Under the pieces are notes generated by a model. It was not told where the DNA came from and made no database searches. It saw only the letters and a list, made by a program, of their open reading frames with translations. The position numbers were made by a program, and so were the translations under genes. This document shows positions 35,763-36,863 of a stretch of DNA of 64,000 bases, piece after piece; the first letter of the stretch is position 1, and each line of letters starts with the position of its first letter. This stretch comes from Escherichia phage JK1, in sequence record MZ436830.1. One strand, written 5' to 3'.

Positions 35763-36030
35763 AAGTGTTTGTACGAAACGCCGGGATTCGAACCCGGTTA
35801 TTAAGTAGTTGACGCTACTCAATATTTTTAAAAGGCCATATCTCGACCATATCCGAACGTTCCGTCAAAAACGCTACTCGGCTTATGGCAAAGATATTTC
35901 CTCGAATCGATAATTCGGTGCGCCGTTTCTGCTGTGATGTAAGAGGGCATCAATAAACGTAAAGATTATTAACGCAATTCCTTACTCAGGGAACATCAGT
36001 CCGACGACTTGCCGGTAGCGACCCGGCTTC
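35763..36030 (-). ncRNA. Possible stable small RNA(s) with tRNA-like 3' T-arm (T4 species-1/2 RNA-like), downstream of tRNA-Arg
   Basis: About 270 nt with no ORF between tRNA-Arg and the terminator; 3' end CCGGGTTCGAATCCCGG plus acceptor-like strand; cloverleaf not resolved. Confidence 0.3.
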
Positions 36031-36035
36031 TTGTC

Positions 36036-36111
36036 TGGTCGAGGCAGTAGGGATCGAACCTACGACCCAGGACTTAGAAGGTCCTTGCTCTTCCTTCTGA
36101 GCTATGCCTCG
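36036..36111 (-). tRNA. tRNA-Arg (anticodon UCU)
   Basis: Hand-folded: 76 nt, CCA encoded, anticodon loop CUUCUAA, T-arm GGTTCGATCC. Confidence 0.8.
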
Positions 36112-36115
36112 TATT

Positions 36116-36190
36116 TGGCGGACGTGATAGGATTCGAACCTATAACCAATCGCTTAACAGGCGATCGCTCTGCCATTGAGCTACACATCC
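36116..36190 (-). tRNA. tRNA-Asn (anticodon GUU)
   Basis: Hand-folded: 75 nt, CCA encoded, anticodon loop CUGUUAA, T-loop TTCGAAT. Confidence 0.7.
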
Positions 36191-36194
36191 AAAT

Positions 36195-36281
36195 TGGTGG
36201 GGAGTGGTGGAGTCGAACCACCCGAGTCGCAATGACAATGGATTTACAGTCCACACCGCTACCTCTACGGGATAACTCCCC
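36195..36281 (-). tRNA. tRNA-Tyr (anticodon GUA), long variable arm
   Basis: Hand-folded: 87 nt, anticodon stem-loop GTGGA-CUGUAAA-TCCAT, type II variable arm, CCA encoded. Confidence 0.7.
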
Positions 36282-36290
36282 AAATTAATT

Positions 36291-36365
36291 TGGTGGCCCT
36301 GGGTGGAATTGAACCACCATCTGGCGATTATGAGTCGCTTGCTTGAACCTTCCAGCTACAGGGCC
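36291..36365 (-). tRNA. tRNA with CAU anticodon (Ile via modified C34, or Met)
   Basis: Hand-folded: 75 nt, acceptor GGCCCTG/CAGGGCC, anticodon loop CUCAUAA. Confidence 0.7.
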
Positions 36366-36366
36366 T

Positions 36367-36442
36367 TGGTGCTGATTGACGGAATCGAACCGCCGACCTT
36401 CTCATTACAAGTGAGTTGCTCTACCTACTGAGCTAAATCAGC
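36367..36442 (-). tRNA. tRNA-Thr (anticodon UGU)
   Basis: Hand-folded: 76 nt, D-arm GCTCAGTAGGTAGAGC, anticodon loop CUUGUAA. Confidence 0.8.
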
Positions 36443-36447
36443 AAAAC

Positions 36448-36537
36448 TGGCGGAGGCGATAGGATTTGAACCTATGAGTCGCCGGAGCGACTGCCGGTTT
36501 TCAAGACCGGTGCATTAAACCACTCTGCCACGCCTCC
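36448..36537 (-). tRNA. tRNA-Ser (anticodon UGA), long variable arm
   Basis: Hand-folded: 90 nt, anticodon stem-loop CCGGT-CUUGAAA-ACCGG. Confidence 0.8.
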
Positions 36538-36539
36538 AG

Positions 36540-36613
36540 TCTCCATACAAGGATTTGAACCTTGGACCTCCTGATCCCAAATCAGGCGCTCTACCAAACT
36601 GAGCTACACGGAG
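36540..36613 (-). tRNA. tRNA-Pro (anticodon UGG)
   Basis: Hand-folded: anticodon loop UUUGGGA; CCA not encoded. Confidence 0.75.
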
Positions 36614-36623
36614 TAAATTAAAT

Positions 36624-36697
36624 TGGAGCGGATAATGAGAATCGAACTCACATCATCAGATTGGAAGTCTGAGGTAATACCATTATACGATATCCGC
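36624..36697 (-). tRNA. tRNA-Gly (anticodon UCC)
   Basis: Hand-folded: acceptor GCGGATA/TATCCGC, anticodon loop CUUCCAA, discriminator U. Confidence 0.8.
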
Positions 36698-36702
36698 AAA
36701 TT

Positions 36703-36789
36703 TGGTGCGAGAAGTGGGACTCGAACCCACAAGGAAATCATTCCGCAGCATTTTAAGTGCTGTGCCTTTACCAATTTGACCATTCTCGC
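36703..36789 (-). tRNA. tRNA-Leu (anticodon UAA), long variable arm
   Basis: Hand-folded: 87 nt, anticodon stem-loop CAGCA-CUUAAAA-TGCTG; one nucleotide separates it from tRNA-Gln (dimeric precursor). Confidence 0.8.
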
Positions 36790-36790
36790 G

Positions 36791-36863
36791 CTGGGAATAA
36801 AGGACTCGAACCTTTGCATCCTGGAATCAAAATCCAGTGCCTTACCAACTTGGCTAATTCCCA
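36791..36863 (-). tRNA. tRNA-Gln (anticodon UUG)
   Basis: Hand-folded: acceptor TGGGAAT/ATTCCCA, anticodon loop UUUUGAU. Confidence 0.8.

Follow-up and report, generated by a model that had tools for sequence, protein, structure and literature searches.

The tRNA gene cluster of Escherichia phage JK1 is very probably a segB-free allele of the T2L/RB3 type

Introduction

The tRNA operon of the T-even coliphages is found with or without the homing endonuclease gene segB. T4 carries eight tRNA genes, with segB (666 bp) located between tRNA-Ile and tRNA-Arg, and has neither tRNA-Tyr nor tRNA-Asn. In T2L, RB1 and RB3, segB is absent and genes for the Met(CAU), Tyr, Asn and Arg tRNAs are present instead (Brok-Volchanskaya et al., 2008, PMC2330249). 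The preferred 27-bp site of SegB lies inside the tRNA-Asn gene of the segB-less phages, and SegB homing replaces the tRNA-Asn region. In T4 x T2L crosses, inheritance of segB is near 100% and T2L markers are lost; the acquisition of segB by T4 was concluded to be quite recent (Brok-Volchanskaya et al., 2008, PMC2330249). Transcription of the T4 cluster starts at a middle promoter just upstream and ends after the species I RNA gene (PMC2330249). Here, we describe the tRNA cluster of Escherichia phage JK1 (record MZ436830.1). The stretch analyzed, hereafter the window, has a length of 64,000 nt, and tRNA genes were called with ARAGORN over its whole length.

The tRNA-Tyr gene, present in the segB-less phages and missing from T4, has been linked to defense. 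The Septu system cleaves tRNA-Tyr in the variable arm, and T4, having no tRNA-Tyr gene, cannot escape it. T6 expresses its tRNA-Tyr, and over-expression or amplification of the gene allows T6 to escape Septu (Chihara et al., 2026, PMC13096335). Similarly, the tRNA-Tyr of T5 protects against retron-Eco7 (Azam et al., 2024, PMC11555353).

As developed below, the JK1 cluster is very probably a segB-free T2L/RB3-type allele of the T-even tRNA operon. This arrangement is already known, as an ordinary published allele carried by hundreds of T4-like coliphages. It has little weight as a discovery, since experiments published in 2008 had already shown both how it relates to segB and that the SegB target lies in tRNA-Asn.

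Gene content and allelic type of the cluster

Exactly ten tRNA genes are found in the window, all on the minus strand, between positions 36036 and 36863. In the order of transcription they specify Gln, Leu, Gly, Pro, Ser, Thr, a tRNA with a CAU anticodon, Tyr, Asn and Arg, and successive genes are separated by 0, 5, 10, 1, 5, 1, 9, 4, and 4 nt. An earlier reading, made from the sequence only, had proposed the same ten genes in the same order. Its upper limit of 10 nt for the spacers holds, but not its lower limit of 1 nt, because tRNA-Gln and tRNA-Leu directly adjoin. It had also placed the cluster at 35763-36863. The tRNA genes indeed occupy 36036-36863, but the remaining 273 nt (35763-36035) contain no tRNA; they hold two small stable RNA genes, rnaC and rnaD, which had gone unrecognized and which match the species 1 and species 2 RNAs of T4.

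All ten tRNA genes reach the gathering score of the Rfam family RF00005, the highest score in the window being that of tRNA-Asn (74.1 bits). The 3' CCA is encoded by eight of the ten, Gln and Pro being the two without it. Additional Rfam matches (Plastid-ycf2, sX4, YrlA, ST7-OT3_4 and, at the Tyr gene, tRNA-Sec) were discarded as cross-matches to tRNA-like structure; they score far below their gathering thresholds and overlap the tRNAs.

The alleles were compared with those of T4, T2, and T6. tRNA-Leu (UAA, 36703-36789, 59.3 bits), tRNA-Gly (UCC, 36624-36697, 65.8 bits) and tRNA-Pro (UGG, 36539-36613, 66.8 bits, no encoded CCA) are identical to their T4 counterparts, over 87/87 and 74/74 positions for the first two. 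tRNA-Thr (UGU, 36367-36442, 72.9 bits) differs from T4 at three positions (73/76 identical). tRNA-Gln (UUG, 36790-36863, 67.4 bits), which has no encoded CCA, differs at eight (66/74 identical), all of them in the anticodon arm. tRNA-Ser (UGA, 36448-36537, 62.6 bits) is a T2L-type allele with an encoded CCA and is identical to that of T2 (90/90); the T4 allele is the same except that it lacks the 3' CCA (CCAG). The CAU tRNA, most likely a tRNA-Ile2 (36291-36365, 59.9 bits), and tRNA-Arg (UCU, 36036-36111, 65.8 bits) are both of the T2L/RB3 type. They are identical to T2 (75/75 and 76/76), whereas only 47/75 and 48/76 positions are shared with the tRNA-Ile and tRNA-Arg of T4, which are thus different alleles. 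tRNA-Tyr (GUA, 36195-36281, 30.3 bits), a class II tRNA with A73 and an encoded CCA, shares 86/87 positions with T6 and 85/87 with T2. Finally, tRNA-Asn (GUU, 36116-36190), with G73 and an encoded CCA, is identical over 75/75 positions to the genes of T2, ECML-134, JY01 and KMB42.

Several features of the JK1 cluster coincide in the T2L/RB3 type without segB: the conserved locus, the gene order through rnaD and rnaC, the lack of an endonuclease open reading frame (ORF) and a tRNA-Asn gene containing the predicted SegB site. The hallmarks of the T4 type, that is segB between tRNA-Ile and tRNA-Arg and T4-type alleles of these two genes, are absent from the JK1 cluster. tRNA-Tyr and tRNA-Asn occupy the place where T4 has segB, as the sequence-only reading had proposed; gene calls and comparison of the loci bear this out, and its account of the T4 set is correct. 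The comparison with T4, T2 and T6 that it had called for shows that JK1 lacks a segB of the T4/T6 type and that its Asn, Arg and CAU tRNAs are identical to those of T2.

Identity to Tequatrovirus genomes reaches at most 97.9% over the 22 kb surrounding the cluster, and the window is assigned by its sequence to a T4-like coliphage of the genus Tequatrovirus. Over its 828 nt, the cluster is 100% identical to that of vB_Eco_Geo (828/828), and the same gene order is found in RB3, RB27, RB14 and KMB42. Sixty phage records are at least 99% identical to the cluster and 399 hold at least 80% of it. Architectures were counted in the GenBank phage collection (an exact tRNA-Gly pattern returned a single contig from IMG/VR): the Tyr-Asn pair is found in 395 records, full-length segB in 126, T4-type tRNA-Arg in 61 and T4-type tRNA-Ile in 129.

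Absence of an endonuclease gene and predicted SegB target

ORFs lying over the cluster encode at most 86 aa, start with TTG or GTG, and give no significant match in Pfam or PHROG. Moreover, five proteins were used as tblastn queries over all 64 kb, namely T4 SegB, the SegB-like ECML-134 endonuclease, the Pu-Krd-SF5 HNH endonuclease and two ORFs of the T2 cluster, and no match was obtained at E<=1e-3. These searches found no hidden endonuclease ORF, in the cluster or elsewhere in the window, and agree with the earlier statement that the cluster contains no segB-like gene.

A 27-bp sequence, GGTTCGAATCCTATCACGTCCGCCAAA, predicted to be the preferred target of SegB from what has been published on this site, is located at 36114-36140 on the minus strand; it covers the 3' part of tRNA-Asn and 2 nt of the following spacer. 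Read from 36140 down to 36114 and numbered from its first G, it differs from the corresponding site in tRNA-Ser at G6, A16, G18, A26 and A27. The same five positions were named as the differences between the Asn and Ser sites (PMC2330249). Nine copies of the SegB core motif GGTTCRANTCC are present in the window, all of them within the tRNA operon and on the minus strand. JK1 is thus a predicted recipient for SegB homing.

Direction of change at the locus

The sequence-only reading had suggested, with reserve, that the JK1 arrangement could be ancestral and segB a later invader. The second part of this proposal is supported by the published conclusion on T4 (PMC2330249) and by the junctions in T6, Pu-Krd-SF5 and T4. 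In T6 and Pu-Krd-SF5 the gene order is Thr, CAU, Tyr, segB, Arg. Both are colinear with JK1 through tRNA-Tyr and the ATTT spacer, and the leader of segB starts from the first base of the Asn slot. At the other end of segB stands a tRNA-Arg of the T4 type. T4 looks like a T6-type sequence that has undergone a further deletion, to judge from its junction. The missing segment starts after GGGTCA of tRNA-Ile and comprises the CCA of this gene, the spacer that follows it, tRNA-Tyr and the leader that segB originally had. Since the tRNA-Ile and tRNA-Arg of T4 are different alleles from those of JK1, T4 differs by a replaced cassette and not by a simple insertion.

Once replaced, tRNA-Asn cannot be restored by the loss of segB. 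Alleles bearing Asn therefore descend from uninvaded ones or regained the gene by recombination with them. In addition, segB, T4-type tRNA-Arg and T4-type tRNA-Ile are all minorities compared to the 395 Tyr-Asn records. In the sister genus Karamvirus (PG7, CC31), the syntenic locus is occupied by a larger tRNA cluster, containing a tRNA-Tyr that is 90% identical to that of JK1 and an annotated tRNA-Asn.

Conversely, it could be proposed that a T4-like set of eight tRNAs is the older one, and that the Tyr-Asn block, together with the CAU/Arg allele pair of JK1, was imported later by recombination with unrelated coliphages, making the ten-tRNA cluster the derived form. tRNA genes do move between phage families. 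Close relatives of the JK1 tRNA-Tyr are found in rV5-like Vequintaviruses (~96% identical) and in T5-like phages (~84%), and the Vequintavirus phiWec196 has a Tyr/CAU/Thr/Ser/Pro block that is ~89% identical. Moreover, the Ile and Arg genes of the JK1 and T4 types (63% identity) are too different for simple descent. However, the T6 tRNA-Tyr adjoins segB, and in T4 the CCA of tRNA-Ile is lost at the very point where the Tyr segment is absent, which argues for a deletion in T4. The preferred SegB target is tRNA-Asn itself (PMC2330249), so that an Asn-bearing allele must predate homing, and loss of segB could not regenerate the Asn gene. The Tyr-Asn pair is also about three times as common as segB, and the Karamvirus genes point the same way. 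An eight-tRNA ancestor is therefore quite improbable.

Taken together, these points support a late arrival of segB in an Asn-bearing cluster. It should, however, be noted that the T4-type Ile and Arg genes linked to segB are unrelated to the JK1 alleles. The locus is, as its sequence indicates, a mosaic, and the exact allele set of JK1 is not proven to be the ancestral one; with this reservation, the earlier proposal is supported.

tRNA-Tyr and tRNA-Asn

The features expected of a functional tRNA-Tyr, namely the long variable arm, the GUA anticodon and A73, are all present, as are those expected of a functional tRNA-Asn (cloverleaf, GUU and G73); aminoacylation of both is predicted on this basis. 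ARAGORN folds tRNA-Tyr with 7/7 pairs in the acceptor stem, 5/5 in the T stem, 5/5 in the anticodon stem, and a 3-bp variable stem. The D stem carries one C.C mismatch, which is kept in every phage homologue examined. The RF00005 score of tRNA-Tyr passes the cut-off of 29 narrowly because the long class II variable arm makes Infernal shift the acceptor register. Compensatory changes are seen in the stems of tRNA-Tyr when homologues from T-even phages, Karamvirus, Vequintavirus and T5 are compared, a sign that the structure is maintained. T5 and T6 share the variable arm of JK1, TGTCATTGCGACTCG, and Escherichia coli has a different one, whereas the anticodon loops of Tyr (CUGUAAA) and Asn (CUGUUAA) are those of E. 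coli.

That both genes could be decaying pseudogenes, left over from a larger cluster and contributing nothing, is extremely unlikely: the 30.3 bits of tRNA-Tyr, its D-stem mismatch and the relative instability of the T6 tRNA-Tyr (Chihara et al., PMC13096335) would agree with decay, but tRNA-Asn has the highest Rfam score of the window and is the same over 75/75 positions in five phages, the identity elements of both genes are intact, the Tyr stems vary in a compensatory manner, and the tRNA-Tyr of T6 is detected by northern blot and rescues infection (PMC13096335). The idea is thus largely refuted, and the two cloverleaves proposed by the sequence-only reading are both called by ARAGORN.

Organization of the operon

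A middle-promoter-like element was found 5' of tRNA-Gln by reading of the sequence and regular-expression search (36933-36960, minus strand). It consists of a MotA box, ATTTGCTTTA (36951-36960), a 12-nt spacer and the -10 hexamer TATTAT (36933-36938). From TGCTTTA of the MotA box down to tRNA-Gln, only one base differs from the T4 upstream sequence, and the element would act as a promoter of the MotA type in JK1. A scan for sigma-70 promoters gave nothing above the level of shuffled sequences; the relevant type is the MotA-dependent middle promoter.

On the 3' side of the tRNAs, rnaD, which encodes the species 2 small stable RNA, is located at 35917-36034 (minus strand). It is identical to T4 rnaD at 112 of 116 aligned positions. 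It is followed by rnaC, encoding the species 1 small stable RNA (35772-35910, minus strand; 137/139 identical to T4 rnaC), which carries a tRNA-like T-arm, GGTTCGAATCC, near its 3' end. RB27 and RB3 carry annotations for both genes at the corresponding positions. They are not reported by tRNA finders, so that their recognition here has a value for annotation. A strong hairpin at 35698-35721 (minus strand), with a 10-bp stem (seven GC pairs) and a 4-nt loop, followed by TTTTTGG, is the putative intrinsic terminator of the operon. Promoter, ten tRNA genes, rnaD, rnaC and terminator thus stand in series, and can therefore be regarded as one unit, a layout that agrees with the published T4 transcript (PMC2330249).

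The region 35100-37600 is colinear with RB27 (95.9% identity) across e.8, the cluster and trna.2, and T4 shares the same flanks. The operon has a conserved position between the trna.2-4/ipI/57B genes and the e.x genes. It is flanked by two minus-strand ORFs with no Pfam match and of unknown function, at 35194-35655 (153 aa, PHROG 2280) and 36950-37465 (171 aa, PHROG 2290). Both are present in RB27 and the 171-aa one also in T2, and T4 lacks an ORF at these two positions. At its stop codon, the longer ORF overlaps the MotA box of the tRNA promoter.

Proposed mechanism and possible roles

The following scheme can be proposed. The MotA-type middle promoter (~36933-36960) would drive a single minus-strand transcript containing the ten tRNAs, rnaD and rnaC, and ending at the hairpin 35698-35721. 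By analogy with T4, host RNase P and 3'-end trimming enzymes would then cut this transcript into mature RNAs. Most of the cluster tRNAs are expected to read codons ending in A or U, used more by the AT-rich phage than by E. coli, and tRNA-Tyr may provide an extra supply when Septu or the PtuAB proteins of retron-Eco7 destroy tRNA-Tyr. If JK1 and a segB+ phage (for example T4 or T6) infected the same cell, SegB, acting as described in the literature, would cut the JK1 allele at the 27-bp target in tRNA-Asn. With the segB+ genome as the repair template, Asn and Arg would be replaced and, with T4 as the partner, Tyr and the CAU tRNA as well.

The JK1 tRNA-Tyr belongs to the type with which T6 and T5 were shown to counter defense nucleases that cleave tRNA-Tyr. 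An anti-defense role against Septu or retron-Eco7 is suggested by its similarity to these genes, 86/87 positions being shared with T6 and the variable arm being identical to that of T5; the effect against Septu itself is known from the work on T6. Mutation of the anticodon loop as a means of nuclease evasion (van den Berg et al., 2023) was considered for Tyr and Asn and rejected, both loops being identical to those of the host; only the variable arm of Tyr differs.

Codon usage in the ORFs of the window was compared with that in a 50 kb sample of E. coli. Per 1000 codons, Tyr codons number 46 in the window and 25 in the sample, Asn codons 61 and 45, AUA 12.4 and 7.0, and AGA 11.2 and 3.4. Enrichment of Tyr and Asn codons, which the sequence-only reading had proposed to look for in late genes, is thus found over the ORFs of the window, but the pattern is not specific. 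Codon demand is broadly consistent with tRNA supplementation. Codon compensation was rejected, as unspecific, for being the only reason why Tyr and Asn are present, Lys and Ile codons being equally enriched and no tRNA-Lys being encoded.

Several points weigh against this scheme. Septu also cuts the T6 tRNA-Tyr, and the single wild-type copy is insufficient for escape (PMC13096335); protection is therefore dosage-dependent. No defense nuclease specific for tRNA-Asn was found in the literature examined. Lys codons are enriched 1.8-fold without a matching tRNA gene, which makes codon demand a poor discriminator. tRNA-Tyr stands barely above the Rfam cut-off and carries the conserved C.C mismatch. 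Finally, expression, processing and aminoacylation of the cluster tRNAs in JK1 are predictions from the sequence.

In some close relatives with eleven tRNAs, such as JY01 (2297-2372 of its compared stretch), BECP11 and Aplg8, a tRNA-His(GUG) gene is located between Asn and Arg. In these phages, Tyr, Asn and His, three of the four tRNAs of the queuosine family (GUN anticodon), lie side by side. It is conceivable, although on balance unlikely, that the Tyr-Asn pair, joined by His in these relatives, forms a counter-defense module against nucleases cutting this family, including an as-yet hypothetical one specific for tRNA-Asn. The role of tRNA-Tyr against Septu and retron-Eco7, established for near-identical genes, counts in favor of this idea, as does the fact that Tyr, Asn and His are three of the four tRNA substrates of colicin E5. 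The host-identical anticodon loops of Tyr and Asn count against it, together with the lack of an Asn-specific defense in the literature examined. Were it true, the destruction of tRNA-Asn by SegB homing would set the gain of the selfish endonuclease against the loss of this protection.

Variant alleles and cluster ORFs in related phages

The CAU tRNA is most likely a tRNA-Ile2, modified with lysidine and reading AUA. Its acceptor stem (GGCCCUG.../...CAGGGCC) contains the pairs C4-G69 and C5-G68, which are determinants for TilS. Consistent with this assignment is its similarity to host genes of the ileX/ileY type: its best full-length matches are genes annotated as tRNA-Ile in 5412/5426 E. coli genomes (~82% identical). 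The presence of lysidine is a prediction from these features. The Ser (36448-36537) and CAU (36291-36365) alleles encode the 3' CCA, which the T4 alleles lack. From what is known of tRNA maturation in T4, this predicts that less 3' trimming and CCA addition by the host is needed than in T4.

Two alleles of tRNA-Gln exist among Tequatroviruses. They were compared using positions 36790-36863 of the window, the T4 gene (4458-4531 of the compared stretch) and E. coli glnU (1466-1540 of the compared stretch). The eight differences all lie in the anticodon arm, where pairing of the stem is fully restored and the loop is changed at positions 32 and 38; the rest of the tRNA is identical. For the JK1-type arm, with the host-like loop UUUUGAU, 311 phage records give an identity of at least 99%, and the T4/T2/T6 type, with the loop CUUUGAC, occurs in 121. 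Arm-specific gene conversion, or selection by an anticodon-arm nuclease, could have produced these alleles.

Among the relatives, each extra ORF of the cluster takes the place of exactly one tRNA gene. In ECML-134 (2128-2778 of the compared stretch), a GIY-YIG endonuclease with a SegB-like N-terminal domain and a different C-terminal half occupies the tRNA-Pro slot. RB68 has an annotated homing endonuclease in the same slot (2436-3044 of the compared stretch), and in Pu-Krd-SF5 an HNH endonuclease replaces tRNA-Gln (2608-3216 of the compared stretch). The T2 ORF in the tRNA-Thr slot (T2_137, 2464-2865 of the compared stretch) can be aligned over 115 aa (33%, E=1e-15) to the DNA-binding, C-terminal half of the endonuclease of ECML-134 and may therefore be an endonuclease or its remnant.

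In T6, Pro and Ser are missing, and the gene annotated as tRNA-Thr (2687-2761 of the compared stretch), for which ARAGORN makes no call, begins like tRNA-Pro with TCCGTGTAGCTCAG, the remainder being that of tRNA-Thr. A deletion between shared D-arm sequences appears to have left this Pro/Thr hybrid, whose two acceptor strands would not pair. Outside the family, the rV5-like phages have a tRNA-Tyr ~96% identical to that of JK1. The ~89% identical Tyr/CAU/Thr/Ser/Pro block of phiWec196 lies at 1199-2011 of the compared stretch. Together, these likenesses indicate, at the level of sequence similarity, an exchange of tRNA genes between coliphage families.

Comparison with known systems

T4 has its cluster at the same locus as JK1, with the same rnaD, rnaC and terminator 3' of the tRNAs. 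It differs by the presence of segB, the absence of Tyr and Asn, Ser and Ile genes without an encoded CCA, and its own Ile and Arg alleles. In T6, segB and a T4-type tRNA-Arg stand in place of Asn and Arg, and the CAU gene is the T4 allele, while tRNA-Tyr is nearly that of JK1. As JK1 has no segB, it would not undergo the SegB-dependent amplification of tRNA-Tyr described for T6. The tRNA-Tyr of T5 belongs to the same phage-type family, with the identical variable arm and ~84% identity overall; it has a strong dedicated promoter, whereas that of JK1 is the eighth gene of an operon with a middle promoter.

T2, which shares the Asn, Arg and CAU alleles of JK1, has one ORF at the position of tRNA-Thr and a second in the interval from tRNA-Arg to e.8, which in JK1 contains rnaD and rnaC. 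These ORFs are absent from JK1, which is therefore of the RB3/RB27 form rather than of the T2 form. In RB3 and RB27, the ten tRNA genes and their order are those of JK1, and rnaD and rnaC come next. Within the group formed by RB3, RB27, RB14, KMB42 and vB_Eco_Geo, nothing of substance differs from JK1, and the flanking 153-aa and 171-aa ORFs vary.

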